Of a stretch of 64,000 bases of DNA, positions 9,579-62,737 are shown piece after piece; position 1 is the first letter of the stretch, and each line of letters opens with the position of its first letter. This stretch comes from Obrimoposthia wandeli (taxonomy: Eukaryota). Under the pieces are notes generated by a model that searched no databases, was not told the DNA's origin, and saw only the letters and a program-made list of their open reading frames with translations. The stretch covers positions 1-64,000 of the forward strand of contig CDROCS010003532.1 in NCBI GenBank assembly GCA_977020255.1, in the 5' to 3' direction. The translations under genes and the position numbers were made by a program.

Positions 9579-11155
9579 CAAGAAGTGAACGAAAAAAATA
9601 AGAAAATTGCAAGCCCAGAATTGAAAAAGTACATACTCTATAATTAGTAATAATTCTATAATAATAACATTCATCGAATTGTGCGGAATTCGAAGCACAT
9701 AATAATTTCAAGTTACAGCGAAATTTTGATCCTAAAATCTGTGCCGACAGCATCCAGCCTACTACAAAAAATGAACGTTAAAGAAATACATTTACAGCAA
9801 ATATGTTTACCATAATTCACAGTTGAACGCAAAAGTCGAAAAGAAAATGAAATTCTGTAGTGGAATAGCCTAAGATCGAGCGCGGGAAAATCCAGGAGTA
9901 ATAAATCAGCAAAAAGTGTCAAGCTGAGATATCGGAACAAAGAAGCATGAACTTAATCGCGAGGAGACGTGAACGTGAGGAGACGCAGGAAATTCAATTC
10001 TAGGACGCCGCGTGACTATTTGAATATCGGATTTAGGACGCGAAACGATTAATTTGTGAAGATCCGAATTGAATCATAGTAAGGACAGAAGTTAATTAAA
10101 ATATTGTAATAATTGTGAGAACTTTTAAAAGAAAATAATTAGAAAAATATTGTAATAATTGAAAAAGTATAGAGTGTCACTCTAACCTCCAGAATTAGTA
10201 GTCTTGTTTGATAATTCGCTAAACCTTTTTAGTATCGGACAGTTGTTGTATTGTGAAAATAAATTAGTATTAAATTAAGCTAAGAAATTAGTGTTTTACG
10301 AAAACAAGCCTCGCGAGATCGTCGAGCCCACTAATCTATAGGCTAGCGAGTAAACTACGTAATGGTGCTCCGAGCCCCGGTGTATTCAGCGGATTGCTAA
10401 GCCCTGGTATTATCGGAGGAGCATCGTTAGCGTCGCTTGGCTCTGGCTCTATTTCGTATTACAGTCTAAGTTTTTAACCTGCCCCTCTCTGAATTAAACT
10501 TCAAACAGCCTAACCATCTAACCACCCGAAGCCTATAATACACCTCATTAGTTTTAGGGTTCCCTTTCAGTTATCTTGAACACAACTCTTTGCACACAGC
10601 ACCAAACAAAAAAACATCATCCAAAACCTTCAAATTTGAAACTAGAACTAAGTAAGAATAAGTAGGCCACATCCATTTGTAAACCTTATCTCTACAGAAC
10701 TCACGTTGGAGCCTCCGAACAAGGATCTAGTTTCAATTAGAAACACAAATAATATTTTATATTCGTTTAAAAAATTATCTCTGTTGAAGATATTTTAATT
10801 ACAAATTTACAAAATAGAAGGTGAATCTAAATCTATGTAAGTCTGGTTTAACTAAAATTATTTTCAAAAAGATTTTCCTTATAAAAAAATGCATAACTAA
10901 CAAAATTAATAACGCCGACTTAGCACTGTTTTATTGGTCATTGTAGAACTCAAATAAAAAATGTAATTAATTTATGACTAATCCTAATATTATAAAAATT
11001 AACCAACTTTTCTACTGTTTATCTCGTAAAACATTTAAAATGGAGAAATTTTTATATTGTAATAATTTATTCTAAATTATATAAACTATTGACTACTATC
11101 GATCAAGTATTTACGAGATGTTTCAGTATGAAAATTGCTTAACTATCAAGTAAAT

Positions 11156-14966: not shown

Positions 14967-15026
14967 TACTGTGAGAGGGTTGATGTTGAATTTGGGCTCG
15001 ATTGAGGACTGGTGATTGTGTGATGT

Positions 15027-15326
15027 TTACACAAAAGTGGTCGGATTTTGTCGTTCTGACAAACAGTAGTAACACCAACACTCTCCGAAATTCTTCCAAC
15101 AGAATACCACCTGTACATATACATCCTCTTGGTTGGGTTCTATCATGATGAACCTTGCGAATTGTCTTCTGCATACAGGGCAACGAGGGTATGTTGGATG
15201 TCCGAACTGTCCATAAGTTCTGATCCATGTTGATAAACATTCCTCGTGGTGTAAATGGTTGCAGGTTTCGGGTCTTGTTCTTCGTTCGGTGAGATCTTCC
15301 AAACATATTGGGCATTCTTCGGACAT
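15027..15326 (-). CDS. RING-H2 finger protein 1 (99 aa)
   Basis: CPIC...CNHLHHEECLSTW...CPVC plus C-terminal CWKNFGECWCYYC; clear paralog of the next ORF. Confidence 0.85.
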   Translation of the reverse strand: MSEECPICLEDLTERRTRPETCNHLHHEECLSTWIRTYGQFGHPTYPRCPVCRRQFARFIMIEPNQEDVYVQVVFCWKNFGECWCYYCLSERQNPTTFV

Positions 15327-15449
15327 TCTAAATACATGATGATGATTAATTTTTACATGAGTTTTATATATTTCTACTATTTGTACAATCGCTTCTAGAT
15401 ATTTCTACATATTTCACACACTAATTTATCTACAACCTCCTCTGACTTA

Positions 15450-16841: not shown

Positions 16842-16880
16842 TTGACCTGTTTGTCTTGCGAGATCATGACGTTTCTTTTT

Positions 16881-19800
16881 TTATCTCAACTCTATCTTTG
16901 TACAACAAAACAAGACGAGTAATATTAATATTATAAATCCAATGATCAGTGCCAGTATTGGATTAGCCAATTCTAGAATACCATAACGTATTGCTGGTAT
17001 CCCTTTACTCTTGATGGTTAATATTTTAAATTTATGTGCACTTTGGTTGGACATGTCACTGAGAAGTACTATTTTAGTTTGTCCAAATATGTAGTCTTCA
17101 CATGTGACAACACTAATTCCATAATGTCCATTAAGTGTTTTCATTTCGGTCGCTGGAACTATACACATTCGTACTGGACATCCTTTTACACACATGATCA
17201 TTACGGCTTTACTGTGGGACGTCTTGATTATTTCTAGGGTGTTGTCTAGATTTCTCAAATGTAAATTATATTCGGATAGTGTCATCAATTCGGCTTTACT
17301 GGTTGGCATGGCTTGTAGTACCAATCCAATTACTACTCCGTAGATCAATCCTTGTGCAACGGTGCACAGGGCCTTGACTGTCCTTTTGCAAAGGGTTTTA
17401 ATTATCATTCGTTTGAGAGATATCTGTTTCTGGTTGGATCGTTTTGTTGTCTGTTGTTGTTTTGACATTTCTTCGATTCCAGTTTTTCCGATAATCAACT
17501 GTACCTGTTTACCTTGTATCATCAACTTTCCGAATCCATTTTTGGCGGACAAGCATGTTTTATGTCCTTCCATCGTTTCAATTATCACTCTCTTACTTCC
17601 ATACTCACGTGTTTTGATGACATCGCCGTCGAATATATACGTCGGTCCTTTTGTATCAGCATCTTTTTGTATTTCCTTTACAATTCGTTTTCTTCGCTTG
17701 TATCCGGCGAATGTTGTTGATATTCGGTCAAGTGCGCGCTGTCGGTCAGCTTCGTAATCCATTCGGAATTGATTCAGTATTCTGTTTTGTGGGTAAAATA
17801 TCGCTTCATTTACTATGTTGTCCTCGATCCTTTCGTCTAGATACACAAGTACTTTGTTCGTCGGTCCATTTGGTCTTTTCATCTTTACAAACTGAAATCT
17901 TTTACTGTCGGTTCTCATAGATCGGAGACATTTTCGGATGATCCACACATCAATTAATCCTAACAACACTAATAGCATCATCAGTGCCGGTGTATGGTAC
18001 TGTATGATGTAGTTGTGGATTTCTTTGAACCATGAACTATTTCCGTGGTTGGAGCCTATCTCTTGTGCTCCCGTTATCGGCATTAGACAACTTAACAAGC
18101 CTATCGCTAGCAATCTTTGGTATTGAAAGCTGGGCACTGTTGTTGTAGCTTCATTTGTTTCTCGTTGTTGCTTCCTCTTTTCAGCGTACTTCTCTATTTC
18201 TCGAACGAGTAACGGTTTGAATTTCGTATCTGGTCTATTCTGTTTGATGTAGACCATCGCTTCTTCTGGTGTATGACCATGGTACTCTACCAACAAGGAT
18301 ACACCTATGGTAGGCGCTAACATCGTACCTTTTTTCTGATATATCAGAACGCCGTTTCCTTCTGTGACTTCGGCTTGGATGGTTTGGGTCAATTTCATCA
18401 GATGTTGTTGTGCATCATTTATTTCTCGATTGGAAGCATGTATGTATCGAGTGGTGTCGTCTTCAGTATTTTGACACAGACTGATTATCTCGTTTCCGAC
18501 TTCAACAATATTAATTACTCGGTTGATACTGTGGAACTTTAATCCAGCAGTATCTATATCTCCTGGATAACATAAAAATACTTTTGGCATTATCTGCGTG
18601 ATTTTGTCGACTCCGGCTAAGAATAACCCGGTCAATGATAATGCTTGGAGGAAATTCTTTTCCTTTGGATCCTCAGGGATGTCGTCCATCCGTCTTTGTT
18701 CTTGCAACATAAGTTGGTAATTTGACAACTGTCCCAAAAAATTAAGATTTGGGTTAGCAATACTTCTTCTCTCCTGTAGGTATTTCAGTGCTTCTAGTAC
18801 CTGCATTCGTCTAGTCTTTATTAGATATGCTAATACTAGGGTTGCTGATCGAGAGATTCCTTTCTGGCAATGTACCAACACTTTTCCTTGGTTTCGGAGT
18901 TCTCTGTGAAGTATTTCGTTTGTTTCTACGAACCATTCGAGAAGATTAGCGTCCATTGAGTCTTTTACTCTTAATGTCATAGCTCTGATTGTCTGGCATT
19001 GTGATTTGTGATTCATTGTAACATTGATCACGTATGTTATCCCTTGTTCCAACAGTTTCTTTTCATCTGTTGCATCTTCCACATTTCCGAGGTATAACTT
19101 ATCTGGAATGATCTCACTCATTGGTTGCATTAATTCTGACTCTTCAAGTTTTAGTCTTTCTAATCTCTTCTCTATCTGTTCGTCGATGTTAGTTAGTTTT
19201 GCCAGTTTCTTTCCTCTCAGCATTCGTATTGCTGGAGAGATATTCATCTTTGTCTCTGATGTCTGTTCCTTTGTTGAGTCTTCTTCCGACTCGGTTTCTT
19301 CTGCAGATTTAATTCGTCTTTCTTGTATATTCTGTTTCACGAATTCTATGTTTTGTCTTTTTCTGCTCTCTTTAGCGAATTCAACCTCCATGGTTTTTCC
19401 GAATCGCTCTATTATGTTATCTTCGGATTCTGTTGATTCTGTATCGTTACTTTCAGGTTCGCTGTCTTGACTAGACTCGCTCGAAGGGTATTCTGGTATG
19501 TCTGTCTGAACTGAAATTAATGAAGGGGTTATAATAATTGGATTGACTGCCCCTGCGTATTTGTGAATCGGATACGGTATTACACTATCTTTAAGTATCT
19601 CAACTTGGAACTGTGCTCCATAGCACATGACAATTGTTTCCAATTTACCCATGATGGACAATCCATCAAAATAGGTAACATTCAGCTTAGATATCGGTGT
19701 TTTCGCATAATTAATTAAATTTACTCGTATCTCGGTTGATGACGGCCATCGATTTTTTAGTAAAATTATAATTTCGTCGTTTATCGATGTAATTACACTT

Positions 19801-21695
19801 GGCGCGGATGATACTATTTCAGCATGATATTTCGGTTGAATTGAGGTTGTCACTTGTTCTCGGATCATATTGATTCTTTGTGGTTTTTTATTTTTAGCTT
19901 CCCACTTCTGGTATCCGCTGTCAATGCGTAACTCTGCCGTTGCTTTGATGATTTTATTGTTGGTCACTTCCGGTTGGGTTGGCGAATGAAATCCTTCTAT
20001 TACGCTCAACCTTACAGATACTTCCGTTTGATCTGTGTCTAACCGGTGAGATTCCGGTATGCAACATACAATTGTCTTTCCGTCAAAGTATTTGGTGTCC
20101 ATCTGACAAATTATCTTTTCAGTGTCTGCGTCGACTAAATGGACTCTCATTAGGTCTCTTTTCCCATGTGAATTACGTAATACCATTATTACATCGTGGT
20201 ATTCTTGTTTGAGTCTTTTTGGTGTACCATGCAGTATGTGACCACCGGCCGGTTCCTTTTCTTCCTGACTGGCTAGTCCTGCTTCAGTACTGTCATAGTT
20301 CTGCCATGCAACTATGTTTGGTGTCAATGTGATTTCGATTATCACTTTCTCAGTCGTAAACACATTGGAATTTTGATGAAGCGCTGCGACTAGTGTATTT
20401 CCGTCGTAGTATGACACTCTAAGTTCGCACAGAAATTCGTTTGTCAGTGCATCTTTCACAATGACGTCTTTCGCCACATCTGTTGGTTGTGTTTTTTCGA
20501 AAACAACTATTATCTCTTCATCTTCTTCCAATATCTCTTGTGGTGCGATGTGTCGGATTACTTCCTTTTCCTCTTGGTGCTTCATTCTGAGCATACCAAT
20601 TCTCGCTGGTTTTTCCTCGCTACCACTCGTCATCATGTTTATGTAGTTCCGATCACTTACCATTCGTGTAAGTTTAATGGTATTGGTATTCGGCTTCAAT
20701 TTCTGTGATCTTAACTCATATCGTGATGCATTATCTTTATTTGGTACTAATTTACATCGATTTGCATGTACAATCATCGGTTCCTTGTTCCGATTCTCCT
20801 CGTTGATTACTTTCAAATTTGTTGAGGTTGTCTGGATCACCTTGTATGGTCCTTTGTATGGTCTATGAAGTTTAAACGATAGACCTGGTTCGATGACTGG
20901 ATAAAATATCATCACTTGATCTCCGACTCTAAATTCATGTGGTTTTGCCTTCTTGTCATATTGTTCCTTGTAACCTTCTTGATTGAATTTCAACTTCAAT
21001 CCAGCTTTGGTCCAAGCATCCTGCAATCTTTCCTTCATGACGACAATGTATTGTTCAGTTTCTAGATACTGAGATGTTGGCTCGGTCCACTTCAGATCCA
21101 TCGGCATATTGTTCTGTCTGAGATACATCAGATAGAATGGTGTGTGACCCGTCGCCTCTCGAACTGAGTTCCTGTAAGCATATAAACATGAAGGTAAATA
21201 TTTATCCCAATCCTCTTGCTTGTCTGAGCAATAGGATTGTACCATCATACATAAAGTTTTATTAAACCTTTCTACTAGACCATCTGTTTGTGGGTGATAT
21301 GGTGAAGTTTGTAACTTCATGATTCCGAATATCTTCGATACTGCTTTTATGACTTCTCCAGTGAAGTTCTTACCTTGATCCGTTAACAACTTTCTAGGCA
21401 CTCCGTATCGAAATATTATCTCTTCCACTAAGATTTGCGCTATTGTTTCAGCTTTCTGGTTCTGCATGGGATATGCTTCTACCCATCTTGTCATGTAATC
21501 CGTAAATACTATGACGTACTTGTTTCCTTTACTTGATTCTCTCAATGGTCCCAATATATCCATTGCTGTGAATTCCATTGGTGCCAAAGGAACTGGCATC
21601 GGTTTCAGTGGAACTTTAGTACGAGTTCCAGTGTCTTTTCTGGTTAAACATACTACATTGTTTACACCATTGTGTAATGTCGTCTTCCATACCAT
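16881..21695 (-). CDS. pol: Integrase core + GPY/F, 3 IPT/TIG-like repeats, DUSP, pseudo-DUSP and membrane modules (C-terminal part of the polyprotein; joined to pol across a frameshift at ~21654)
   Basis: MDILGP / TDQG / ERFNKTL integrase catalytic motifs; KGPY; HCQKGISRS at 18846-18872; several hydrophobic segments near the C-terminus. Confidence 0.9.
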   Translation of the reverse strand: MVWKTTLHNGVNNVVCLTRKDTGTRTKVPLKPMPVPLAPMEFTAMDILGPLRESSKGNKYVIVFTDYMTRWVEAYPMQNQKAETIAQILVEEIIFRYGVPRKLLTDQGKNFTGEVIKAVSKIFGIMKLQTSPYHPQTDGLVERFNKTLCMMVQSYCSDKQEDWDKYLPSCLYAYRNSVREATGHTPFYLMYLRQNNMPMDLKWTEPTSQYLETEQYIVVMKERLQDAWTKAGLKLKFNQEGYKEQYDKKAKPHEFRVGDQVMIFYPVIEPGLSFKLHRPYKGPYKVIQTTSTNLKVINEENRNKEPMIVHANRCKLVPNKDNASRYELRSQKLKPNTNTIKLTRMVSDRNYINMMTSGSEEKPARIGMLRMKHQEEKEVIRHIAPQEILEEDEEIIVVFEKTQPTDVAKDVIVKDALTNEFLCELRVSYYDGNTLVAALHQNSNVFTTEKVIIEITLTPNIVAWQNYDSTEAGLASQEEKEPAGGHILHGTPKRLKQEYHDVIMVLRNSHGKRDLMRVHLVDADTEKIICQMDTKYFDGKTIVCCIPESHRLDTDQTEVSVRLSVIEGFHSPTQPEVTNNKIIKATAELRIDSGYQKWEAKNKKPQRINMIREQVTTSIQPKYHAEIVSSAPSVITSINDEIIILLKNRWPSSTEIRVNLINYAKTPISKLNVTYFDGLSIMGKLETIVMCYGAQFQVEILKDSVIPYPIHKYAGAVNPIIITPSLISVQTDIPEYPSSESSQDSEPESNDTESTESEDNIIERFGKTMEVEFAKESRKRQNIEFVKQNIQERRIKSAEETESEEDSTKEQTSETKMNISPAIRMLRGKKLAKLTNIDEQIEKRLERLKLEESELMQPMSEIIPDKLYLGNVEDATDEKKLLEQGITYVINVTMNHKSQCQTIRAMTLRVKDSMDANLLEWFVETNEILHRELRNQGKVLVHCQKGISRSATLVLAYLIKTRRMQVLEALKYLQERRSIANPNLNFLGQLSNYQLMLQEQRRMDDIPEDPKEKNFLQALSLTGLFLAGVDKITQIMPKVFLCYPGDIDTAGLKFHSINRVINIVEVGNEIISLCQNTEDDTTRYIHASNREINDAQQHLMKLTQTIQAEVTEGNGVLIYQKKGTMLAPTIGVSLLVEYHGHTPEEAMVYIKQNRPDTKFKPLLVREIEKYAEKRKQQRETNEATTTVPSFQYQRLLAIGLLSCLMPITGAQEIGSNHGNSSWFKEIHNYIIQYHTPALMMLLVLLGLIDVWIIRKCLRSMRTDSKRFQFVKMKRPNGPTNKVLVYLDERIEDNIVNEAIFYPQNRILNQFRMDYEADRQRALDRISTTFAGYKRRKRIVKEIQKDADTKGPTYIFDGDVIKTREYGSKRVIIETMEGHKTCLSAKNGFGKLMIQGKQVQLIIGKTGIEEMSKQQQTTKRSNQKQISLKRMIIKTLCKRTVKALCTVAQGLIYGVVIGLVLQAMPTSKAELMTLSEYNLHLRNLDNTLEIIKTSHSKAVMIMCVKGCPVRMCIVPATEMKTLNGHYGISVVTCEDYIFGQTKIVLLSDMSNQSAHKFKILTIKSKGIPAIRYGILELANPILALIIGFIILILLVLFCCTKIELR

Positions 21696-23778
21696 CCCAA
21701 TGGTATTTCTCTTTGATTCTGGCTATTGTCTTTCGCCCTGACAGATGTCCTCCTAGTGTTCCATCGTGATACTGGATCATCACTGCTGTTTTCAATGACT
21801 TCGGAATTACTACGACTATCTTTCCGACATTGTTGACAATATACAAGATTCCTTCTTTTATCGAGTATTTTTTCGTCATTTCATCGTTTAGATCTCCTTT
21901 CACCAACAATTCTTTGATTAGACTCAGTTCTTCATCTTCTTTCTGTTCTTTGATGATCTCTTTGTCTATTTTACCCGTTTTCAGCAAAATCGTTAGTAGA
22001 TTTGCTTCTCCTATTTGGTCATTGGTTTCATCTTCTTCTGGAATTATGTTTCCTTTCTCGTCTACATTTGTCAATCTCGACAAACAATCTGCGTTGCCGT
22101 TCGACTTTCCGGTTCTATAACGGATTTCTAGATCGAATTCGGCCAATTTTAGAAACCATCTGTTTAATCTACTCATCTCATCTCTATGTTTATATAAGAA
22201 CTGTAGTGGTTTGTGATCTGTATATAGGAATACTTTTTGTCCTAGCAAGTAGTGTCTGTACTGTCTACATGAATACACTATGGCTAGACATTCCTTTTCG
22301 ATAACAGAGTATCCTCTTTCGGCTCTGTTTAATCCTCTACTCGCATACGCGATGACGTGTTCCCTTCCTTCGTCATCCTCTTGTCCCAATACTGCTCCTA
22401 CAGCATAGTTACTTGCATCTGTCATGAGTATGAATTGTCGGTTTATATCTGGAAACGCTAATATTGGTGCTTTTATCAGTCTTTCTTTTAAATGCTCGAA
22501 CGCTTGTTGTGCTTCTTTTCCCCATATGAACTTCTCATCTTTCCTCGTCAACTTTCTCAATGGTGTTGCTATATCTGAAAAATGTTCAACAAATCGTCTA
22601 TAATAATTCACAAGACCTAAAAAACTCTGTATTTCTTTAACAGTCTTTGGCGCTAAATGCGCTTTTACTTTCTCGATCTTTGCTGGATCAGGTCGGATGC
22701 CTTCTTTCGATACTATATGTCCTAAAAATGTTACTCGCTCTTTAGCCCATTCGCATTTTGTAGGTTTAACTTTTAATTTAGCGTTTTCCAGTCTTTTAAA
22801 TACGACTTCAAGATTTTTTAAATGTTCTTCGAACGTTTTCGAAAATATTATTATGTCATCGATATAAACCATCGTGTTTGCACACGATGCGAGTACAAAA
22901 TTCATGCAACGCTGAAATGTTGCTGGAGCTCCTGTTAGTCCGAATGGCATTTTTTCGCATTCGTATAGTCCATCTCCGCAGGAAAAGGCTGTTTTGTGTT
23001 TATCCTCTTCCTCTATCTCGATTTGCCAGTATCCACTCTGCAAATCCAATGTCGTAAAATAATCTGAATTACCCAATTTATCGAGCATCTCTTCGATTCT
23101 AGGTAATGGATACACATCTTTTCTTGTGATCTTGTTCAGTTCTCTGAAATCTATACAGAATCTCATTTTCCCATCCTTCTTTTTTACCAACACCACAGGT
23201 GCTGAGAATGGTGAAAAACTCGGTCTAATTACTCCTGTTTTAGACATATCTTCAATCTGACTTTTTACTTCATCTTGTAGCTGTAATGGTACTCGATATG
23301 GTCTTCTTCTGACTACTTTGTCTTCTGTCAGTGGTATTGTGTGTTTTATGACAGGTGTTTCTCCTATGTCATATGGATTTTTTGCAATTACTTTCGGAAA
23401 TTTATGTATTAGATCAAGTAATTGTTTCTTTTCTCTAGTTGTCAGTCTTTCTGATTGGATTACTATTTCTTCGTAATCATTCGTGTCTTTATCGAGTTTC
23501 ATAGCACACACAGTGGGATTCTCCATTTGTGCTATCTTTCCCAACCTCATTCCTCTGTATAATAGGATGTCATTGTTGGTTGTATTCATCAGTCTGACTG
23601 GTATTTTGTGGTTTTCAATCAGACATACTGTACTCACAACTGGTAATTCGTATTTCTCTATGAAATCTCGTGATGGTTCGAACACAACTGGTCCTTTATC
23701 TTCTGATAACGTGTGACCTTGAATGAGAAATTGTGATCTTTTACCGATTTTTATAGGATTCTCTATAAATACATCAAT
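21616..23778 (-). CDS. pol: Reverse transcriptase, RNase H and integrase Zn finger (frame open from 23778)
   Basis: RFCIDFRELN, LDLQSGYWQI, MPFGL, YIDD (22855-22866), TDASNYAVGAVL, HKPL, and HDGTLGGH...WCKQC. Confidence 0.95.
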   Translation of the reverse strand: MDVFIENPIKIGKRSQFLIQGHTLSEDKGPVVFEPSRDFIEKYELPVVSTVCLIENHKIPVRLMNTTNNDILLYRGMRLGKIAQMENPTVCAMKLDKDTNDYEEIVIQSERLTTREKKQLLDLIHKFPKVIAKNPYDIGETPVIKHTIPLTEDKVVRRRPYRVPLQLQDEVKSQIEDMSKTGVIRPSFSPFSAPVVLVKKKDGKMRFCIDFRELNKITRKDVYPLPRIEEMLDKLGNSDYFTTLDLQSGYWQIEIEEEDKHKTAFSCGDGLYECEKMPFGLTGAPATFQRCMNFVLASCANTMVYIDDIIIFSKTFEEHLKNLEVVFKRLENAKLKVKPTKCEWAKERVTFLGHIVSKEGIRPDPAKIEKVKAHLAPKTVKEIQSFLGLVNYYRRFVEHFSDIATPLRKLTRKDEKFIWGKEAQQAFEHLKERLIKAPILAFPDINRQFILMTDASNYAVGAVLGQEDDEGREHVIAYASRGLNRAERGYSVIEKECLAIVYSCRQYRHYLLGQKVFLYTDHKPLQFLYKHRDEMSRLNRWFLKLAEFDLEIRYRTGKSNGNADCLSRLTNVDEKGNIIPEEDETNDQIGEANLLTILLKTGKIDKEIIKEQKEDEELSLIKELLVKGDLNDEMTKKYSIKEGILYIVNNVGKIVVVIPKSLKTAVMIQYHDGTLGGHLSGRKTIARIKEKYHWDGMEDDITQWCKQCSMFNQKRHWNSY

Positions 23779-24129
23779 TTAGTTTATTTGTCTGTTTGAT
23801 GTGCTATCCTTCAATCTTGGATCTTGTAAATCAATACTTATCCCTTTAAGTTGTGATAGTACATCCATTCCTAAAATTGTAGGTTCAGGACATTCTTTCA
23901 TGATTCTAACTGGTATAGTGATCGTATTACGTCCAATTATAAATGTACACGGTAATATTCCCGTCACTTTTACAGGGTCTCCATTGACCGATACCAAGAA
24001 TTCATCTGGTTCTGCCATTGTTCGTTTCTGTTCCTCTGTCAGACAATCTTCACTTACTATCGAAGCTACAGCACCTGTATCAATTAAGGCTTCTACTCTT
24101 AAATTATTTACTCTAATGATAGCTGCTGG
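23779..24129 (-). CDS. Second aspartic protease, in frame with but bounded by TGA (24130-24132) and TAA (23779-23781)
   Basis: Translating past the ORF1 TGA gives PAAIIRVNNLRVEALIDTGAVASIVS...ILGMDVL (DTG at 24073-24081). Confidence 0.85.
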   Translation of the reverse strand, partial: PAAIIRVNNLRVEALIDTGAVASIVSEDCLTEEQKRTMAEPDEFLVSVNGDPVKVTGILPCTFIIGRNTITIPVRIMKECPEPTILGMDVLSQLKGISIDLQDPRLKDSTSNRQIN

Positions 24130-27100
24130 TCACTGTGCTCCATTTATATTTCCCATATGGTATATTGTATTTATCGAATTATTACACTCTGTCGGTCCAC
24201 TTCCTTTGTTTGGATAGTGAAATCTAATATTTCTCACTTGTCGATCTATTATTCGTCGACAAATCGGACATGATACCATTTCCTTCGCACATCTCCGACA
24301 TGTTCTTACATGTCCGCATGGTAAAAAGGCAACTTCTATTTTGTTGACCATGCAAACTGCGCATTCCGGATCTTCTAGTACGTATTCTAGTTCATTTATG
24401 TACTCTTTCTCTTTTGTTTCAATTGTACTGTCATCTTTATCTTTCAGTAATTCAAAAATTGATCCGTATCCATTTCGCGTAGTTTTTATTTTTAATTCTA
24501 CCAAATCTCTGATTCTTTCTGCTTCTTTTGGATATAACCTTCTCACGAATGACACTACCGGTGTGTCTTGTTGAGCCAAAATCTCTTTCCGTGTGATTTG
24601 GTATTCGATTATACATTCGGTTTTCTGTTCTTTTTGCTTTATTTTGTTTTTTAACATACAAAACTCGCAAAATTCATGATGTAAAATTTTCTTAGGTAAC
24701 TCAAGAGTATATCTGTCGATAATTCGTTCTTTTTTACACTTGTGGCATTTAATTACGTCTTTACCATCCTTTTTTATAGCAAAAAGTCCCTTTTTTGCCA
24801 ATTTTTTAAGTCTTGGATCTTCGAAAGTTATTTCTCGATATTGTTCGTCACATTCGTTCACTTCTCGCATGACTTCGAATATATCTTCAATTCGGCTATT
24901 TGTTATTACTCTACCTACTATTAGAGCTGATTTTCCTTTTGGAATCTCGTCACTGTTATCGAAATCGGGTGCTTTTCCCATTTGGATTTCTGGTACGTTT
25001 GAAGTTTTCAGTTTCAAAAGAAATGGACAATTTGGTGCATCTCTTTTATGACGTTTCATTGGGTTTTCATTGTTTTCCCACTCTCTAAACTCTACTCTAC
25101 ACCATACGCATCGTACTTCTTCCTCAGAACCATAACTATTTGTCGCGTTTAACATTTGTAAACCTGTTCTTGCCATTTTACGTGCCATTTCTTTTGAATA
25201 GTACAGTTCTAATATATTTCGTCTTTTTTTCTCGAATCTCATGGGATCCTTTTCTGACAGATTCACATATGTTATTTTCCTCCTCGTCATCTCTTGTGGT
25301 CCGAGGTTTACGTTTTTGTAGTGAAGTATCGACTTTACTAGCGCTTCCTGTTTTTTGTCTTGGTACGAATTTCCCATACGGAACGTAGTGTATTTTTCCT
25401 TTTCGACTATAGGTCCTCTCAACATTTTTATCTCTCTCACTGAACTGTCATTCTTATAACTCTTGTTGTTTGGTAATATAATTATTCCTTCAAACATTCT
25501 TATTACGTCCATCCCAATCATGACTGGACTACCGCAATCTGTTAATATTCTAGCATTTAACTGCAATGCTCTCCCATCGATATTCAACGAACATTTCAGT
25601 GTTCCTTCCGACACTACATCTGTACCATTCACGTTAACAAATGTCTGTTTTCTAGGACATACTTCTCTTAATTCTTTTGATGACAAGATTTCTTTACTCA
25701 GTACTGATACTGCGGATCCAGTATCAACTTCGGCAAGATATTCTCTTCCGTTCAATGTTACTGCTACTTGTGGTGGAGCATTTGGATTCTCATTTGGATT
25801 CTCATTTGATATCCTAGACTTCAGAATTCTTCTGGAATTATCTTTTTTGTCTTTTTCCTCTGCTTGTGGAATCTCACTGTAGCTCACTTTAGGCCATCTT
25901 ATCATTAAGATGCCTCTCTTGAACTTTTCCTTCTCTTCCTTTAGTTCCTTCATTGGATATAGGTTTAACGCCACTTCTTCCTTGTCTGGTAACGGAATCT
26001 TTGGTTTTCCTGGTATCTTTGCATATACTCCTGGGCTATCATTATCGTCGTCGTTGTCGTCTCGATAATTTCTTGGGTCTCGCATCATGGTTCTCGTTTG
26101 ATGTTGTTCCTTCTTGAGGGCTCGCAACTCGTTCTCGTGATGATGGTGCATTAGATATTTTGCTAAAAATGGAAAACATCCAATTATAAGTTGCCAGGTG
26201 ATTCCGGTTATCCTGTATAAACTATACGTAGACAACACCTGGGCTATAATTACCTGCACAAATTTAATTATAACATAAATACCTATGATACCCGAAAATA
26301 GTTGTCCTAAAACAAGGAATTTCCCCCACATCTTTCTAAGTGTCTGATGTGCTGCTTCCTTGAAATGACTTGGCGATAATAACATATCAAAATTCGCATA
26401 TCTAGCTCCTGGCGGTAATGCTCGATGTACCATCTCCGTAAGTACTCTGGCTCTTTTTACTGGAAACATTATTTCGTTCCATGCCGCTTTTAAGTCTTTT
26501 TCATTGTACAATCCTGCGTTCTCCATATTTTCCACCGCTTCGGATTTCATTTTACCTTTGAGATTCGTCATTTTTATCATCGCTGGGGTTTTCGTTGGCT
26601 TTCGATCAGGTAACATTATCCATAGATCATTCGTCATCTGATATTCAGATGCCATTATATTAGAGCAGCTGATTTCTTTAGTTGGAGTGTCTTTTGGAAG
26701 TATTATTCTCGTGATTGGTTCAACAAAGAGTTCTTGTAAATTATACGTTACTGCCAATTCACTCGTACATCGGTCTGTTTTTCTCAACTGTACTTCTACT
26801 TTATTACACTTGTAAGTATACAATACTTCTCCCATGGTTTTAGCAAATACTCCTTCATCCAAGGGTAATAATGGTGCTACCATGTCTGGATTCGTAATAG
26901 CTAATGCTAACTTTGTTCTTACGATCTCTTTGTTTAGCTGGCAATCTCTTTCGATCATCATCCGATATAACTGTTCCATTTGCATCAATCCTTTATGATA
27001 ATAAAAATCAATTTTATTATTAAAATACGTGTGTAGCTGCATATCTCTAGGTTTTAGCTTGGTTTCTGCCAATGCTATTGTTTCTTTGGACAAAACTATT

Positions 27101-30100
27101 CCAGGATAGTTTGTAGTACTAACAGTCATTCCGCATCGCGCTTTGTTTCTCTTTTTAATAAATATCAATCCTTCTTCTATTGATGTTGCCATTAACAGTG
27201 TAGGTGTCTTTGTCATTGGAATTGGTCTTGTTTCATTGAGCAATCCTTTTCCAACTTTATTATACAGGAACCCTTCTCCATCTTTATTATACAGGAATCC
27301 TTTTATTTTATTAAAGCTAATCTCTTTCAAAAATACTAAAGAGCATTGCTTCGGATTCACGTGATACACAATTGTGGATTCACCTGTAAAACAAGATGCA
27401 TCTGTCATTTTACATTCTGGATACTTCATCATTCGTTGTGTCTTTTTATCAAAATTGGCAGTCCATGATTTTAATTCAATTTTGTAAGTTACGTCCATTA
27501 CTAACTCTGTTACTTTGGTTCCACGCACGTTTTTTGTTCCTCCGTCACAAGATCCATCAGCCCATCGTTGTCCAACTCTCGTGACTGTTTCGTATCGTCT
27601 CACTCCAATTTTTACAACAGGTTTGTAATTCTTGTCTATTTCTATTGTTCCTGTACGAAATGCGTCTTCGCAATCTCTCGGAAAAACCTTATGTGCTTTG
27701 TACGGTGTGGTAGGTGTGATTTCCGACATAAAACTTCTATGGCCACAATAGAATTCGTGATAACTTGAATGAACTGAACATTCTTTCACTTCTACTTGTA
27801 CTTTATCAACATCCTGATACACAAAGTAGTTTTCAACACCTTTAACTTCTAATTTTGACTGTTGTGATTCTGGACAGTCTTCGCTGTCAAGCAGTGAATA
27901 CTTTTGTCCCATCTTTGGTATGCTACAGTCGTATGCTATCAATCCTGATGCCTGTTGCATTCCCATGAACATTACTAACATCATCATCATCATTGTTGTG
28001 GACATATTTGGTTGATTGTTTCTTTCTTTTGGACGGTATTGTTTATTTTCTCTTTGACGATTCTCATGACATTGTTCGTCATCGTCTTCGTTCATTTCCA
28101 CAATGGTTTTAGCGTAGTCACTTAATTTTGCCCAACCTCCGTTTTCGTCAATTCGTCTTTGTAACACATTCTCGATCAAATACATCGCTTCATTTATTCC
28201 TTGTTTGACTTCGTGAGGTTGGCTCGTTCGTTCCGTCAATTGGAAACATAGATATGTGATTGCTGTAATTAACTTTTTATTTGTAGTCTGGCTTCCACAT
28301 AATCTCGCTAAAACTTCACCGTCATAAAATCTATCTATCGATGCATGGTATACATGATTCGCGGTCATTCTCTTTACTGCAGACATCTGTGATCTAACTG
28401 CTTTAGTCAAATTGTCTGTTATATCGGTTGTTTCATCTCTGTACATTTTGAACAACTTCGGCTTCACTTGCCTGAGAATTCCCGTAAGTATATCTTTACT
28501 ACTTGGAGCTTCTGAATTCATATCACCTCTGATATCTTCATTCCTCTCTGCACTATACTGCTCTAATGACGCTGCTAACTGTCCAATGCTTAGATGTCTC
28601 TCTTCATCAGTTTGTGGTGCAGTTAGAACATTTCGTAATATACTTCCGTCTTTTCTAGGTCTTCCAGGTCCTCTTCGAAAATACTGATACTCAGTTTGAT
28701 TCTCTCCTGGATCATACGGTTCACCATTATACTGTATCTCTTGACTTGGTCCTTCTTCATGGCCAATCTCTTCATTTTGTCGCATCATCTGCTCTGCTTG
28801 TCTATCTTTGTATGCAGCATGCCAAATTGGTGAATCTAAATCTACAATTTCGGAGATTTCGTCTTCTCCTACTAGTTGGGTTACGTTTTCGTTTTGTCTC
28901 ACTTGGTTAGCTGTATTCGCGACTTCATCTTGTCTGATTTGAATTATATCTGGTTCTGGTGGTACCTCGACCACTGGAGTTGTCAACTCATTTTCTAAAT
29001 TCATGTCTTGTAATTCTGCTACGTACGGTTCTGGTGTGGATGTCTTGTTCCAAGCTTCAGCTACATCGTTATCTCCGCTTTCGCTTGAACTGTCTAAAAT
29101 TTCTATAGGCGATTTTATCATTTCTAATGCAGTGTTTAATATCTCCGTTAATCCTTCATTATCTACTAACTCTTGACGTCCTACAGTGATGATATCAATT
29201 TTTTCTTCTAATTCGTTTCCTATCGGATATCCACACTCGACTGGTACGTCCTCATCATCTAGTGATCTCCCTTTATAATGGAACAACATATTCATTCCAT
29301 AAATTTCAAGTTTCTCGGCCAACTTTTTTCGAATAGTTTTCATTGTCTGATACACGTTAAGTTTTTCATGTATTATCTGTCCGGAAATTAATCGAAGCGA
29401 AATTTTCATCGTTCCCTTTTGGTTTGATCTCTGTACGTAACGACCATATCCTTTCAATAATCCTCGTGGTATTTCTTTGTAACCCAAGTTATCATGACTA
29501 AGTTTAACCAATTCTGCTCGCACTTCTTCCAATCTGTGCACTTTAATTGTTTGCAATTTGGCCAAAACTTCTGGAGCTTCACTCGTTTCATCTAACGGTT
29601 GATTCAACGTCTCCTTAGCTTCACTAATTATCTTTTTTACATTTTCCATACTCGTAGCATTTCTTGCTGCTTCTACATGATCAGTCATAGGTTGTGCGTT
29701 ACACGTTTTCTCTATTGGTGTCTCATACGCTTCTAGTATTTGATTCATTAAATCATTCATCTCTTCTCTCGAGTGTAGACTTTTTTCTTGTTTCGACAAC
29801 GTAGATGAATTCGCCATCTTTGTATGTGGTGAATCTTTAATTATTCCCAACATTCGTTCAAATTTACTATCACTATCTTCAAAATCTATTTCGCGTCGAA
29901 GTTCGGTCTCGCGATTCCTATCGCTGTCATCGTTTACATAACTAAAATTTCCTTTCGGTTTCGGCGAACTCTCACGACTATTCGTCTTGTCAACATTATT
30001 ATTATTATATCTACCGGAATTATTATATCTCTCAGCTCCTTGCTGTCCTACGTAATTATTGTATCTCTCAGCTCCTTGCTGTCTGTCTGCATAATTATTG

Positions 30101-31662
30101 TATCTACCTGGTGACTGTTGTCTATCTGTATACTGATTATTCGGTCTCCATGGCTGTGGAGTATATCCACCACCTCTATTCCATGGCGGAGGTGAATTAT
30201 ATCCTCTATAATTATTTCCAAAATTATTATTACCGAAATTATTATTTCCAAATCTGTTAGTTCCGAACTCCTTACTTCTCGTACAATCTCTCGAATAGTG
30301 ACCCATTTGTTTACACGTGTAACACATTATTCTCCCTCGAATATCTATCTTATTTTGTTCATCTTCGAACTGCACTCGACGACTATTCTGTCTATTATCA
30401 TAGCGTCCTCTAAAATCATTTCTTCGGAAATTCGATTCAAAACCGCTTCCTCGATTATTGAATCTTCCGTCACTACTTCCTGTATTATTCCCAAATCGAG
30501 AGTCACTTCGCTCTCCTCTGTTTGCGCTATAATTCCTATCGTCTCCTCTCCAAGGTTGGCGATTTCCTGAATTATCTCTATTAAATCTATTCCTGGAATC
30601 ATCTCTATTTCTATTCCACGAATCATTACTATTTCTACCTCTTGAATCATCTCGATTCCTGTTCCAAGACTCACTATTATTTCTACCTCTCGAATCATCT
30701 CGATTCCTACTTCGGAAATTATCTCTGTTTCCGTTACTGGATTCATCTACTTTTTCAAACTTATTTTGTCCGTAATTTCGATTCTGAAAATTACTCGGTT
30801 CTGTTTTATTCACAAATACCTTTGTCTTATCGTCGTCACCTGCAGTCATTGCGTAAATTGCCAATGCTGCGTTATTTTTTATATTTTTCTCAATCTCTCT
30901 CGCCTTTCGCAAGGCGTTATCAAAATCATTTGTATCCGATACTGCTAATAACACTTTAATATCCTTTTTCAATCCTCCTCTAAATATATCTAACAAAACT
31001 TCTGCCATTTCATTTTGGTTCCACTCATTTTCCGCTACTTGTGCTTCTTGAGCCACAAGACTACCGTCCTGATTTCTCATTATTCTTCTTGGGTACGCTC
31101 TTGCGGCCAAGGTTCTCAACACATACGCGTATTCATTCACGCCTTCGTCATGTTTCTGTTTCCGTTCTCTCATGATTCGCTTATTTACTTTTGCTAAGTC
31201 TCCCAATACTAATTTTCCAATAAAAGCATTTTCCAACGTTGGCCAGTCTAAACGTTCTGCTTCTGTCAAGTGTTTATACACTTCAAGTGCTAATCCGGTT
31301 AAGTGTGCCTGCACTCGGACACATTTTTCTTTATCGTTCCATCCTTGAACATCTGCACAACTTGAATATTCTGCGAGGAAGTCACAAATACTTTCCTCAT
31401 CTCCTTTAAACTTTGTAATCTGCAATGATCCTGAAAAGTTGGGTCTCAACGTCGCATTTAAGGCTTGTTCCAACTGTTCGGCATTCATGTCACCTACATT
31501 ATTTCCTGCATTATTATCTACTTGAGCTCCTGGGTGAGCCATATTTTCAGCTATATCCTCTTCAACTATTTCTTCAATATTATTCAATTGAAAGTCCTCA
31601 ATCACTACTGGATTGGCAATTTCAAATTCTTCTGGGTTTATGTCACCAAATAATTCAGTCAA
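24130..31662 (-). CDS. gag: 2510-aa polyprotein: Gag-CCHC, ubiquitin-like domain, AT-hook, Bcl-2-like domain, chuvirus/gB-type glycoprotein, protease 1, BIR, degenerate BIR, RING
   Basis: CYTCKQMGHYSRDC (30283-30324); Ubl-like 29175-29409; RRGPGRPRK 28651-28677; IDENGGW ~28122-28150; signal + LIAYDC 27925-28005; TM ~26230-26325; DTG 25717-25725; BIR 25015-25240; C3HC4 RING 24255-24363. The listed start is TTG; the first ATG is at 31542. Confidence 0.92.
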   Translation of the reverse strand: MTELFGDINPEEFEIANPVVIEDFQLNNIEEIVEEDIAENMAHPGAQVDNNAGNNVGDMNAEQLEQALNATLRPNFSGSLQITKFKGDEESICDFLAEYSSCADVQGWNDKEKCVRVQAHLTGLALEVYKHLTEAERLDWPTLENAFIGKLVLGDLAKVNKRIMRERKQKHDEGVNEYAYVLRTLAARAYPRRIMRNQDGSLVAQEAQVAENEWNQNEMAEVLLDIFRGGLKKDIKVLLAVSDTNDFDNALRKAREIEKNIKNNAALAIYAMTAGDDDKTKVFVNKTEPSNFQNRNYGQNKFEKVDESSNGNRDNFRSRNRDDSRGRNNSESWNRNRDDSRGRNSNDSWNRNRDDSRNRFNRDNSGNRQPWRGDDRNYSANRGERSDSRFGNNTGSSDGRFNNRGSGFESNFRRNDFRGRYDNRQNSRRVQFEDEQNKIDIRGRIMCYTCKQMGHYSRDCTRSKEFGTNRFGNNNFGNNNFGNNYRGYNSPPPWNRGGGYTPQPWRPNNQYTDRQQSPGRYNNYADRQQGAERYNNYVGQQGAERYNNSGRYNNNNVDKTNSRESSPKPKGNFSYVNDDSDRNRETELRREIDFEDSDSKFERMLGIIKDSPHTKMANSSTLSKQEKSLHSREEMNDLMNQILEAYETPIEKTCNAQPMTDHVEAARNATSMENVKKIISEAKETLNQPLDETSEAPEVLAKLQTIKVHRLEEVRAELVKLSHDNLGYKEIPRGLLKGYGRYVQRSNQKGTMKISLRLISGQIIHEKLNVYQTMKTIRKKLAEKLEIYGMNMLFHYKGRSLDDEDVPVECGYPIGNELEEKIDIITVGRQELVDNEGLTEILNTALEMIKSPIEILDSSSESGDNDVAEAWNKTSTPEPYVAELQDMNLENELTTPVVEVPPEPDIIQIRQDEVANTANQVRQNENVTQLVGEDEISEIVDLDSPIWHAAYKDRQAEQMMRQNEEIGHEEGPSQEIQYNGEPYDPGENQTEYQYFRRGPGRPRKDGSILRNVLTAPQTDEERHLSIGQLAASLEQYSAERNEDIRGDMNSEAPSSKDILTGILRQVKPKLFKMYRDETTDITDNLTKAVRSQMSAVKRMTANHVYHASIDRFYDGEVLARLCGSQTTNKKLITAITYLCFQLTERTSQPHEVKQGINEAMYLIENVLQRRIDENGGWAKLSDYAKTIVEMNEDDDEQCHENRQRENKQYRPKERNNQPNMSTTMMMMMLVMFMGMQQASGLIAYDCSIPKMGQKYSLLDSEDCPESQQSKLEVKGVENYFVYQDVDKVQVEVKECSVHSSYHEFYCGHRSFMSEITPTTPYKAHKVFPRDCEDAFRTGTIEIDKNYKPVVKIGVRRYETVTRVGQRWADGSCDGGTKNVRGTKVTELVMDVTYKIELKSWTANFDKKTQRMMKYPECKMTDASCFTGESTIVYHVNPKQCSLVFLKEISFNKIKGFLYNKDGEGFLYNKVGKGLLNETRPIPMTKTPTLLMATSIEEGLIFIKKRNKARCGMTVSTTNYPGIVLSKETIALAETKLKPRDMQLHTYFNNKIDFYYHKGLMQMEQLYRMMIERDCQLNKEIVRTKLALAITNPDMVAPLLPLDEGVFAKTMGEVLYTYKCNKVEVQLRKTDRCTSELAVTYNLQELFVEPITRIILPKDTPTKEISCSNIMASEYQMTNDLWIMLPDRKPTKTPAMIKMTNLKGKMKSEAVENMENAGLYNEKDLKAAWNEIMFPVKRARVLTEMVHRALPPGARYANFDMLLSPSHFKEAAHQTLRKMWGKFLVLGQLFSGIIGIYVIIKFVQVIIAQVLSTYSLYRITGITWQLIIGCFPFLAKYLMHHHHENELRALKKEQHQTRTMMRDPRNYRDDNDDDNDSPGVYAKIPGKPKIPLPDKEEVALNLYPMKELKEEKEKFKRGILMIRWPKVSYSEIPQAEEKDKKDNSRRILKSRISNENPNENPNAPPQVAVTLNGREYLAEVDTGSAVSVLSKEILSSKELREVCPRKQTFVNVNGTDVVSEGTLKCSLNIDGRALQLNARILTDCGSPVMIGMDVIRMFEGIIILPNNKSYKNDSSVREIKMLRGPIVEKEKYTTFRMGNSYQDKKQEALVKSILHYKNVNLGPQEMTRRKITYVNLSEKDPMRFEKKRRNILELYYSKEMARKMARTGLQMLNATNSYGSEEEVRCVWCRVEFREWENNENPMKRHKRDAPNCPFLLKLKTSNVPEIQMGKAPDFDNSDEIPKGKSALIVGRVITNSRIEDIFEVMREVNECDEQYREITFEDPRLKKLAKKGLFAIKKDGKDVIKCHKCKKERIIDRYTLELPKKILHHEFCEFCMLKNKIKQKEQKTECIIEYQITRKEILAQQDTPVVSFVRRLYPKEAERIRDLVELKIKTTRNGYGSIFELLKDKDDSTIETKEKEYINELEYVLEDPECAVCMVNKIEVAFLPCGHVRTCRRCAKEMVSCPICRRIIDRQVRNIRFHYPNKGSGPTECNNSINTIYHMGNINGAQ

Positions 31663-32026
31663 ATAAAAGCTGTCGGTTGAAACCGCTGATTGATTAACGT
31701 CTCTTTCTGATACGTTTTCTTCGACTCTAGTCTTTTCTGTTACTTTGTTATCTGTTTGGGAACCTGTTCAATTCGGTTAACTTTATTATTATTTATCTCT
31801 TCCTGGGGAATCTGACTTTGTCTTCTAGTATTATACGCGGGTCCTTTTCTATTATCCGTCGTCTTATCAATTATGTATTCGTTTACGATATCAATTTACT
31901 TATTATTTTATCTTATTTCACAATTCTTATTTTACGATTTCTTATCTCTTTAATTAGTTCGAGGACACGTCTCCCGACTTAACCTATTCAATTAATTACT
32001 TCGAGTATCAATCCACTCGATTCTCA

Positions 32027-32545: not shown

Positions 32546-32566
32546 ATTCGCTGTGTCCGACGAGCT

Positions 32567-32584
32567 ATCCTCACTCGGGCACCA
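32567..32584 (-). promoter_or_regulatory. Primer-binding site TGGTGCCCGAGTGAGGAT
   Basis: An 18-nt sequence complementary to a canonical tRNA 3' end (...CCTCA CTCGGGC A CCA), 8 nt inside the LTR. It resembles elongator tRNA-Met; identity unconfirmed. Confidence 0.75.
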
Positions 32585-32592
32585 CTTTAATA

Positions 32593-34317
32593 TGTTGGGG
32601 TTTCTATACGAGACTTGTATAGATCCTCTTGTGTGCGGAGGGCCCCAACGTGAGTTCGAATAGAAGCAGGTCTTAAAGTTGGTCGTGGCCTACTTAGTGT
32701 TATGGTTGCCTATCTCTATTGCTTATCTGAAGGTGTTTGCTTTTCGATGTCTCTTAGTCTGAAGGGTTTAGAACAGTACTTTTAATGTAGGAAATCGTTT
32801 ATTGTTAACACACTAGGCTAATGAACAATACGTTTACGTACGTATTTTCTAAAAAGTTGTAGTAAAATTCCTAAGACTTTCGTAAGTCTCTGCACAAGTG
32901 AGGATGAACCACGTATCGATTTTACGGTTATGTTTGTTTTAGTCGCTAGAGTCTTTACTCTAAAAATAGGGATTGATTTTAGAGAGCCGTTGCTCTAAAA
33001 TTTAAGTAGCCTAAAAAGTCTGAAGGGTTTGTTTCCAAAATGTCTTCACGACAACAGATTACCTTATTTCAAATTTTCTTATGATTACAAAATTCCAATT
33101 TGTCTTCGCGACAACAAATTACTATTACAAAACTTCAATTTGTCTTCACGACAACAATTATTATTACAAAACTTCAATTTGTCTTCACGACAACAAATTA
33201 CTTCATTACGACAACAATTACTATTACAATTAAATGTCTTCACGACAACAAATTATTATTACAAAACTTAAATTTGTCTTCACGACAACAAATTATTATT
33301 ACAAACTTCAATTCGTCTTCACGACAACAATTACTATTACAAAACTTCAATTTGTCTTCACGACAACAATTACTATTACAAAACTTAAATTTGTCTTCAC
33401 GACACAGCTTACTATATTTCAGATTTTCTTACGATTACAAAATTCCTTTATTTCAAATTCTTTTACGATTACAAAGATTACTTTATTTCAAATTTTCTTA
33501 CGATTACAATTCTTCTGGCTCACCTTCCAAATCTGTAGATAATTTCCATCTCGTTCGGATCCTAGTTCCGGCGCTCCTTGTCTCTTCGGAACAGTGACTT
33601 CCTGTCCGCCGATTCGTGGTTTACGCCCTTGACAGTTGGCGTGTCTCGTTTCTGTTCTGTATGTTTGTGTTAATGATTTTCTTTTCTAACTGTTTTCTTA
33701 CCTCTGCTTGGCGTTCGGTCTCGATCAGGAATGATATTGTTTCTGCCGAGAATTCTCTTGTTAATGGCTTGATTTGGGCTCGTTTCCGTGGATCGGAATA
33801 AGATTGTTTCTGCCGAGAATTCTCTTTTTAATGGCTTGATTTGGGTTCGTTTGATAGGCTGATTTCCGTAGACTTATATAGTCTATTTCTCTGCTGATTT
33901 CCCCGGTGACGTGGTCTGTCAATCAATCTTCTGGTTCGCTGCGGAAAGTATTTATTTTAGCTAAATTAATTAATTTTCTCACTTCAGGAACAGCTGTCGG
34001 GACGTGGCTGCTGACGTCGACTGGATTTCGGTTTGTACTTCTTCTTTTAAATTTCCTTTTCCTAATTAATCTTCTTTCTTGTAATGACTTATCTTCAGAG
34101 CTATATCTTTTTTGGGCCCTTTTCTTAAGTCTAACTTCAATATAAACATACACATTTCACACGACCTTCGTGGTCCTCTAATATTCAATTTTCCTTTTAC
34201 TTTAATATTTTACTTCTAATTTTCAATTTTATTTAATTTTAACCTTGTTTTCAAGGATTTTCATTTTAGTATAAATTCGACTTAATTATTTAATTTTAAC
34301 AAAACCCAATCCTAACA
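32593..34317 (-). mobile_element. 5' LTR of the giant element (1725 bp)
   Basis: TGTT...AACA ends, adjacent PBS, both ends homologous to the solo LTRs; AATAAA at 32798-32803. Confidence 0.9.
33040..33400. repeat. ~39-bp tandem array inside 5' LTR, ~9 copies
   Basis: Unit CTTCACGACAACAATTACTATTACAAAACTTCAATTTGT. Confidence 0.85.
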
Positions 34318-34321
34318 CATT

Positions 34322-62700: not shown

Positions 62701-62737
62701 TAATATAAACAATATTAAAAATGAACGAGTATATGCA

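Follow-up and report, generated by a model that had tools for sequence, protein, structure and literature searches.

A conserved domain with a probable Bcl-2 fold, encoded by a Burro-like giant Ty3/Gypsy retrotransposon from Obrimoposthia wandeli

The DNA analysed here, called the window, is a stretch of 64,000 nucleotides from Obrimoposthia wandeli (contig CDROCS010003532.1, positions 1 to 64,000). Its minus strand carries a high-copy Ty3/Gypsy retrotransposon of ~24 kb with an in-frame envelope glycoprotein (Env), similar in architecture to the Burro elements of planarians. The polyprotein of this element contains, upstream of Env, a conserved helical domain that very probably has the Bcl-2 fold, a view based on structural models and on tests that are concordant yet all sub-threshold. 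We favour, with modest confidence, the reading that this domain serves as a cytosolic pro-survival decoy beside the inhibitor of apoptosis protein (IAP) of the same element, and that it was probably captured from the host.

Results

Location and motifs of the domain

Open reading frame 1 (ORF1; 24130-31767, minus strand, 2545 residues) contains both motif segments quoted in the first-pass annotation of the window, which had proposed a viral-type Bcl-2 mimic at 28120-28500. The place was right and the domain is slightly wider, at about 28087-28509. The segments concerned are given below, where BH stands for Bcl-2 homology, pN/pS for the ratio of nonsynonymous to synonymous polymorphism, and A and B for two families of the element, A being that of the window copy.

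28087..28509, minus strand: Bcl-2-like helical domain, residues ~1087-1227 of ORF1 (~140 residues), from a sub-threshold Pfam Bcl-2 match, predicted helices, structure search and a pN/pS of 0.16
28237..28317, minus strand: helix 4 to helix 5 with the segment at the BH1 position, EVLARLCGSQTTNKKLITAITYLCFQL, residues 1151-1177, with [TS]NKK[LV] in place of NWGR
28123..28155, minus strand: BH2-like motif RIDENGGWAKL (I-x-x-NGGW), residues 1205-1215, RIDENGGW being residues 1205-1212
28006..28086, minus strand: charged linker from the domain to the signal peptide, pN/pS 0.10 in family A, 31% identical to family B
27943..28005, minus strand: internal signal-peptide-like segment from residue 1255, with a Met-rich hydrophobic region (h-region) and an A-x-A/G end, from hydropathy; the same pattern occurs in families A and B

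The helical region ending in RIDENGGWAKL was found as described, and is predicted to be all-helical. Across the six frames of the window, NGGW occurs a single time. When the residues of ORF1 were shuffled (n = 5000), NGGW appeared in 26/5000 shuffles and I-x-x-[NQEA]-GGW in 6/5000, both patterns having been picked post hoc with the motif already seen. The first Trp of the BH2 consensus (W-I-x-x-x-G-G-W) is present in family B and is Arg, Gln or His in family A, and we score BH2 as present. At the BH1 position, for which the lack of the canonical NWGR had been pointed out, neither Gly nor Trp is found in any of 102 copies and Arg is found in 2; in the hhalign register, Lys may take the place of the BH1 Arg. 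A BH3 motif of the form L-x-x-x-G-D (or G-D/E) was seen in helix 2 of neither family A nor family B when the alignment was read by eye.

Conservation and selection

The domain is under purifying selection. Its pN/pS among 30 copies chosen by Env is 0.16 (95% confidence interval 0.10-0.23), against 0.32 (0.25-0.41) in the upstream spacer, and falls to 0.12 in helices 5-8; the signal-like segment gives 0.21 and Env 0.15-0.23, the pairwise values sharing ancestry. Sets chosen by similarity of the domain (L001-L030, L046-L060) are biased towards low pN/pS and were set aside for the Env-chosen copies, and two loci (L048 and L059) were left out of the older family-A set in the domain-similarity comparison.

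Family B, which was revealed by the search with the Pfam Bcl-2 profile (PF00452), is older and decayed, ~45% identical to family A, and makes up ~60 of the 150 matches listed. With synonymous sites saturated, the two families are 44% identical in helices 5-8, 32% in helices 1-4, 29% in the spacer and 46-53% in Env. The first-pass annotation had named the loss of NGGW from siblings as a sign against its reading; of the 59 young copies (29 picked by the domain and 30 by Env), 58 keep the motif, as do 14/14 older family-A copies (picked by PF00452 and so biased), and 11 of the 29 decayed copies of family B have it intact. All 30 loci fetched in a search with the Env family for more element families belong to family A. 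In one family-B copy (L087:1471-2112), the helix 5-6 segment of the domain is tandemly repeated.

Sequence evidence for probable Bcl-2 homology

In a 48-row alignment of natural, stop-free pieces, the Pfam family matched most often is Bcl-2 (16/48 rows), with a best sibling E-value of 6.4e-4; the window domain itself matches PF00452 at E 0.056-0.099, below the cut-off. Of 51 candidates from a genome search with PF00452, 30 were matches, namely 15 host-like ones and 15 element copies, the latter at E 0.6-9.2 and 16.8-20.6 bits. A profile built from families A and B was compared with 10 host Bcl-2 pieces (profile-profile), which gave a probability of 84% and an E-value of 7e-6 over 74 columns. 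The score of this match, 34.0, exceeds those of 100/100 column shuffles (best 19.1) and 100/100 seven-column block shuffles (best 31.4). No host gene stood out as the donor: among the 10 host pieces, the top score was only 12.4 bits (L036).

Outside this genome, no homologue of the domain was found among 241 candidates in longer proteins, nor at E<=0.001 among 1.84 billion representatives. A query made of the domain and Env matched one of 3970, an unnamed glycoprotein, the match extending over the Env portion (~80% of the query), and a single-sequence search of the Protein Data Bank (PDB) with the domain returned two weak, irrelevant matches.

Ten of the 15 host-like Bcl-2 matches in the genome (L031-L045) lie above the Pfam cut-off. 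Judging by their motifs, they presumably include Bak-like and Bok-like exons. Two upstream BH3-like exons stand among the host Bcl-2 loci (L142:3358-3666, with a Bak-like BH3, and L144:710-946).

Structure prediction

Host Bcl-2 rows were excluded from the folding alignment to prevent circularity. From this alignment AlphaFold2 predicted eight helices, and from the single sequence it predicted an all-helical region with a predicted local distance difference test score (pLDDT) of 41. When the alignment-based model was compared with 48,161 PDB representatives (VIA), the top 8 rows were of the Bcl-2 family, with Z 6.5-7.1, a root mean square deviation of 3.8-4.6 and 117-134 of 143 residues aligned. 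All 17 rows with at least 109 residues aligned in the list of 50 are Bcl-2 family members, and the other 33 rows align 46-79 residues. Since Z values under 8 are common among helical proteins, it is this full-length coverage that carries the fold argument. In Foldseek the same model gave Bcl-2 family members in the top 11 rows, the best being KsBcl-2 (probability 0.90, TM-score 0.44), and the single-sequence model gave a list rich in Bcl-2 with a best E-value of 0.39. The VIA re-scoring of the Foldseek picks (50/50 Bcl-2, Z 6.2-7.5) is not independent of the latter. The model and fold search named as a check in the first-pass annotation came out in its favour as to rank, in VIA and in Foldseek alike, and below the thresholds as to score.

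Nothing significant was found in a viral structure library, where adenovirus E1B ranked second and ORF16 of Kaposi's sarcoma-associated herpesvirus seventh (E 0.8-1.3). A feature search of the ESM Atlas showed no Bcl-2 cluster among the rows shown; its first row, the fungal DUF6532 at low recognition, was taken as noise.

Linker, signal peptide and topology

The domain had been placed just upstream of the signal peptide of Env. The order is right, and 46 residues, 10 acidic and 8 basic, lie between the BH2 Trp and the h-region. The charged linker, which forms part of these 46 residues and is constrained like the domain in family A, may hold a cleavage site or the n-region of the signal. Signal cleavage is predicted before residue 1276, which is the start of Env (27942), the site having been placed by eye. 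The h-region spans ~12 residues, the 19-residue hydropathy is 1.45 vs 2.32 for the transmembrane segment (TM) of Env, and the basic flank is missing downstream of the predicted cut. The Env start was located in 57 young copies, and in 52 of them it lies in one open frame with BH2. From its sequence, the peptide looks like a cleavable signal for the endoplasmic reticulum (ER) and not like a mitochondrial tail. Mitochondrial tails differ from such segments, and a signal of this kind would insert co-translationally at the ER, not at mitochondria.

Two hydrophobic segments were seen in ORF1, a strong TM that closes Env and the weaker stretch of the signal. The domain is therefore expected to face the cytosol and Env the lumen, with the protease, IAP and Pol back on the cytosolic side. 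At least transient tethering at the ER is expected, because a cut by signal peptidase would leave the signal on the Gag side. Remnants of this sort are usually cleared, either by a viral protease or by signal peptide peptidase. That the signal lasts as a canonical tail anchor is topologically possible, but the idea is weak and this outcome less likely. The first-pass annotation had proposed that the cleaved signal peptide gives the usual tail-anchored topology of Bcl-2 proteins; a domain ahead of an internal signal and predicted to be cytosolic is in line with our results, whereas the usual tail anchor is doubtful with an h-region of this length and an A-x-A/G end.

The Met run of the signal corresponds to an ATG triplet repeat, with a longest run of 5 in 51/59 young loci and runs of 16 to 264 in some; poly-Met stands at the signal site in L050 and L055.

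The element

The element is a giant Ty3/Gypsy retrotransposon with an in-frame Env that was amplified recently. Its polyprotein comprises, in order, Gag, a ubiquitin-like domain, the Bcl-2-like domain, the signal peptide, a mononegavirus-type Env, a protease, BIR-BIR-RING, a second protease, reverse transcriptase (RT), RNase H and integrase. In the window, the parts other than those given above are as follows, the long terminal repeats (LTRs) being listed last.

30280..31542, minus strand: Gag region with one CCHC knuckle (residues 482-496; PF00098), 44-56% identical to family B
29173..29409, minus strand: ubiquitin-like domain (residues 787-865) that precedes the Bcl-2-like domain, from a sub-threshold Pfam ubiquitin match (E 0.0057), pN/pS 0.21
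26233..27942, minus strand: Env, a Monjiviricetes-type fusion glycoprotein (PF24664, E 9e-94), with a C-terminal TM at residues 1827-1845
25498..25767, minus strand: aspartyl protease 1 (PF13975, E 9e-6)
24241..25194, minus strand: IAP cassette with BIR (E 4e-11), a weak second BIR (E 0.013) and RING (E 2e-11)
23779..24129, minus strand: aspartyl protease 2 (PF13975, E 4e-9), cut off from ORF1 by a stop in the window copy
21616..23778, minus strand: RT, RNase H and integrase zinc finger (Pfam)
16881..21722, minus strand: integrase core, then a dual-specificity phosphatase and TM segments (Pfam), in a frame that differs from that of RT in the window copy
32560..34320, minus strand: 5' LTR-like segment with a CA end, then a TGG-starting sequence like a primer-binding site, 77-85% identical to both ends of a sibling LTR
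7852..9580, minus strand: second LTR-like segment, 78-87% identical in the alignable ends only and paired with the 5' LTR only tentatively

The companion IAP cassette (BIR, RING) lies in the same frame as the domain, which had been called a second anti-apoptotic arm. The window copy is interrupted by a stop at 24130-24132 and by more breaks near 23779 and 21616-21722, unlike a sibling stretch in which BH2, both proteases and RT lie within one frame. The 1.35-Gb genome gave 11,774 candidates, of which 150 were scored; all 150 are stop-free and 99-100% identical to the domain. One sibling element measures ~23.7 kb between 2.06-kb TG...CA LTRs, which are 98% identical to each other. The RT-RNase H part is 35-51% identical to assorted Ty3/Gypsy proteins, and none of the 120 RT matches listed (of 1781) has Bcl-2, BIR or the same Env family. 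The capsid part of Gag gave no Pfam match.

Some further observations concern the rest of the element and the window. The BIR-BIR-RING cassette is flanked by the two aspartyl proteases (23779-25767), which share one frame in two sibling stretches. After the integrase (16881-21722, minus strand), the dual-specificity phosphatase is accompanied by four TM-like segments, and 14638-16880 (minus strand) holds two more frames of 476 residues (with a TM and a proline run) and 229 residues, which lack a convincing Pfam match. The two LTR-like segments of the window (compared as 7852-9580 and 32590-34320) are alike only at their ends (78-87%), whereas the LTRs of three sibling pairs agree at 92-99.7% along much of their length. 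Recombination, nesting and LTR variants are all possible reasons. A different repeat occupies 59498-64000. Three pieces of its part at 60563-64000 are 98-99% identical to another contig, and an inverted relative of it, 70-79% identical, lies at 43002-45146.

Discussion

The resemblance to Burro is one of architecture, since no named Burro sequence was among the RT matches listed. The Burro elements are treated in PMC6431247 (Arkhipova and Yushenova 2019), which cites Grohme 2018 and Jurka 2007 on them. In its account of planarian Burro, Gag with CCHC knuckles is followed by a ubiquitin/SUMO-like domain before a BCL2-like motif, Env lies between BCL2 and the protease, and a BIR is present (PMC6431247). 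Burro1-4/GYPSM1 of Schmidtea mediterranea and the Burro-like element of Dugesia tigrina are, like the window element, giant multi-copy Ty3/Gypsy LTR elements, and as described there they share with it Gag with CCHC, the ubiquitin/SUMO-like and BCL2-like domains, a mononegavirus-type Env in frame before the protease, and a BIR in the polyprotein (PMC6431247). The element of O. wandeli exceeds 20 kb, has the order protease, RT, RNase H and integrase, holds Gag, ubiquitin-like domain, BCL2-like domain, Env and protease in one frame together with a BIR, and is present in high copy. It differs in that one CCHC knuckle was found, whereas two or three are described for Burro (PMC6431247), and in that the MATH, ankyrin and dUTPase domains of Burro have no match in the window ORFs scanned. 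The two proteases flanking its IAP and the phosphatases after its integrase are unmentioned in the Burro section of PMC6431247. To judge by position only, it is highly probable that the domain corresponds to the BCL2-like motif of Burro. Because the order ubiquitin-like domain, BCL2, Env and protease is already published (PMC6431247), the element is an added case of the Burro kind and its domain is not new; what stands of the proposed viral-type Bcl-2 mimic is a Bcl-2-like helical domain, and what falls is its novelty.

The IAP of Burro1, B-IAP, with BIR and RING, is reported to shield stem cells from caspase-mediated apoptosis (Lee et al. 2026, cited in PMC13465017). This BIR and RING cassette is common to the window element, and the function cited concerns the IAP (PMC13465017). 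The text of PMC8532177 on Burro1 mentions its expression, and the term 'bcl' is absent from it.

In the reading that we favour, the domain was probably captured from a host Bcl-2 gene. The internal signal would direct Env to the lumen of the ER, and the protease, IAP and Pol would be led back to the cytosol by the one TM of Env. Synthesis of the domain would take place at the cytosolic side of the ER, where it would stay tethered at least up to the processing of the signal, and it would be released through the proteases of the element or through signal processing. Through a non-canonical groove, like poxvirus M11L, it may bind BH3 helices of host proteins that are either Bak/Bax-like or BH3-only, and death would be blocked upstream of caspases by the domain and at the caspases by the IAP. 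By analogy with viral proteins, we consider the chances of such BH3 capture, with its block upstream of the caspases, to be about evenly balanced. M11L binds the Bak BH3 without an Arg-Asp salt bridge, and BH motifs are dispensable for the Bcl-2 fold (PMC3847314), so BH3 binding is compatible with a missing NWGR. Set against this precedent are ORFV125, which keeps the BH1 Gly and Arg (PMC7719400), the Gly being lost in the window domain, and vaccinia A52, B14 and K7, which have the Bcl-2 fold, do not act on apoptosis and have other targets (PMC3847314).

The viral Bcl-2 proteins as a group (KsBcl-2, BHRF1, A179L, M11L, F1L and ORFV125) are, like the window domain, divergent, with eroded BH motifs and a selfish carrier (PMC3847314, PMC7719400). 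The window domain is unlike them in lying within a retroelement polyprotein, in having no dedicated TM tail other than the Env signal, and in giving no significant match. Vaccinia A52, B14, K7 and N1L also lack a canonical BH1 and a true TM tail (PMC3847314). Unlike these four, none of which is among the structure-search rows shown, the domain keeps a clear BH2.

Besides the behaviour of ORFV125 and of the three vaccinia proteins, and the want of a named Burro relative, several results weigh against this reading. The BH1 Gly is replaced by Lys under both alignment registers. The window domain scores 14.4 bits against a PF00452 gathering cut-off of 31.4, which leaves it below the threshold of the canonical family. 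Because of this and of its BH1, we file it as Bcl-2-like and not as a canonical multi-BH family member. The profile-match score drops from 34.0 to 17.7 without the NGGW columns, and block shuffles come close to the full score; given this collapse, the sequence signal is mainly BH2. Searching PDB sequences with the profile placed Bax at rank 4 (E 1.3). The alignment-based model is of low confidence (pLDDT 48, predicted template modelling score 0.35), no VIA row reaches Z >=8 and the best unrelated one has Z 6.4, and the best Foldseek E-value, 0.19, is sub-threshold. Finally, the spacer is constrained as well, so constraint alone does not prove a host-directed role.

Alternatively, the domain could be a helical bundle of no particular kin, not homologous to Bcl-2, in which GGW arose by chance. 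Every score is sub-threshold, the signal collapses without BH2, and neither the viral library nor the ESM Atlas, with DUF6532 in first place, brought up a significant Bcl-2 match or a Bcl-2 cluster among the rows shown. We nevertheless hold this to be improbable, as the full-length alignment is to Bcl-2 proteins only, helix count and spacing fit Bcl-2, and a BCL2-like motif was independently annotated at the same position in Burro (PMC6431247). If the fold is granted, its role could be one that does not involve BH3, such as an innate-immune or autophagy blocker of the A52/B14/K7 type, or a structural link from Gag to the Env membrane in assembly. The BH1 position, devoid of Gly and Trp throughout the copies, would agree with this, as would the lower conservation between A and B in helices 1-4, from which a large part of the groove is built, than in helices 5-8, the poxviral precedents (PMC3847314), and the ubiquitin-like, RING and phosphatase modules that the element also bears. 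The IAP in the same frame, whose Burro1 counterpart is stem-cell-protective in that second-hand report, points instead to apoptosis, and we regard a role without BH3 as possible, if on the unlikely side. That the domain is pro-apoptotic and Bax/Bak-like, or perforates membranes to aid particle release, seems very improbable: Bax and Bak are among the top structural rows, but they tie there with pro-survival proteins, helix 2 lacks the L-x-x-x-G-D motif in both families, and an IAP is co-encoded.

A separate question is whether the signal peptide is retained after cleavage as a lasting C-terminal anchor, which would make a membrane-bound Bcl-2 or Gag-ubiquitin-like-Bcl-2 protein at the ER and not at mitochondria. 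The shared frame of BH2 and the Env start in most young copies argues for it, together with the constraint on the signal-like segment and the linker. Flavivirus and hepatitis C virus capsids, which are anchored by an internal signal, provide a precedent. The order of domain, signal and Env is the same in families A and B, and BCL2 also precedes Env in Burro (PMC6431247). However, the h-region is short and marginal, stands well away from BH2 and has no basic C-flank, remnants of this kind are usually cleaved off, and the in-frame Met at residue 1255 would permit a separate Env start from a subgenomic RNA. A lasting anchor is therefore rather doubtful. It would be more unlikely still that one short peptide is used twice, as the ER signal of Env and as the lasting anchor of a Bcl-2 decoy that, without the Gly-Arg pair, restrains Bak/Bax or ER BH3 proteins at the assembly site. 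If this were true, death would be blocked at two levels, by Bcl-2 and IAP, with a stoichiometry fixed to Env; such an Env-coupled two-level block was not found in the literature searched.

Finding such a domain is in itself nothing new, as it was annotated earlier in planarian Burro elements (PMC6431247). No published work on the function of the domain or on a signal-peptide anchor was found in the literature searched, and Grohme 2018 and Lee 2026 may already treat the domain. Our analysis adds that the domain is selected, probably folded and kept across two families whose synonymous sites are saturated, together with its non-canonical BH1 and a concrete proposal for its topology. If the Bcl-2-like domain is active too, a retrotransposon would, like large DNA viruses, stop apoptosis at points before and after the mitochondria, and this would bear on the mutualism between transposon and host in regeneration.

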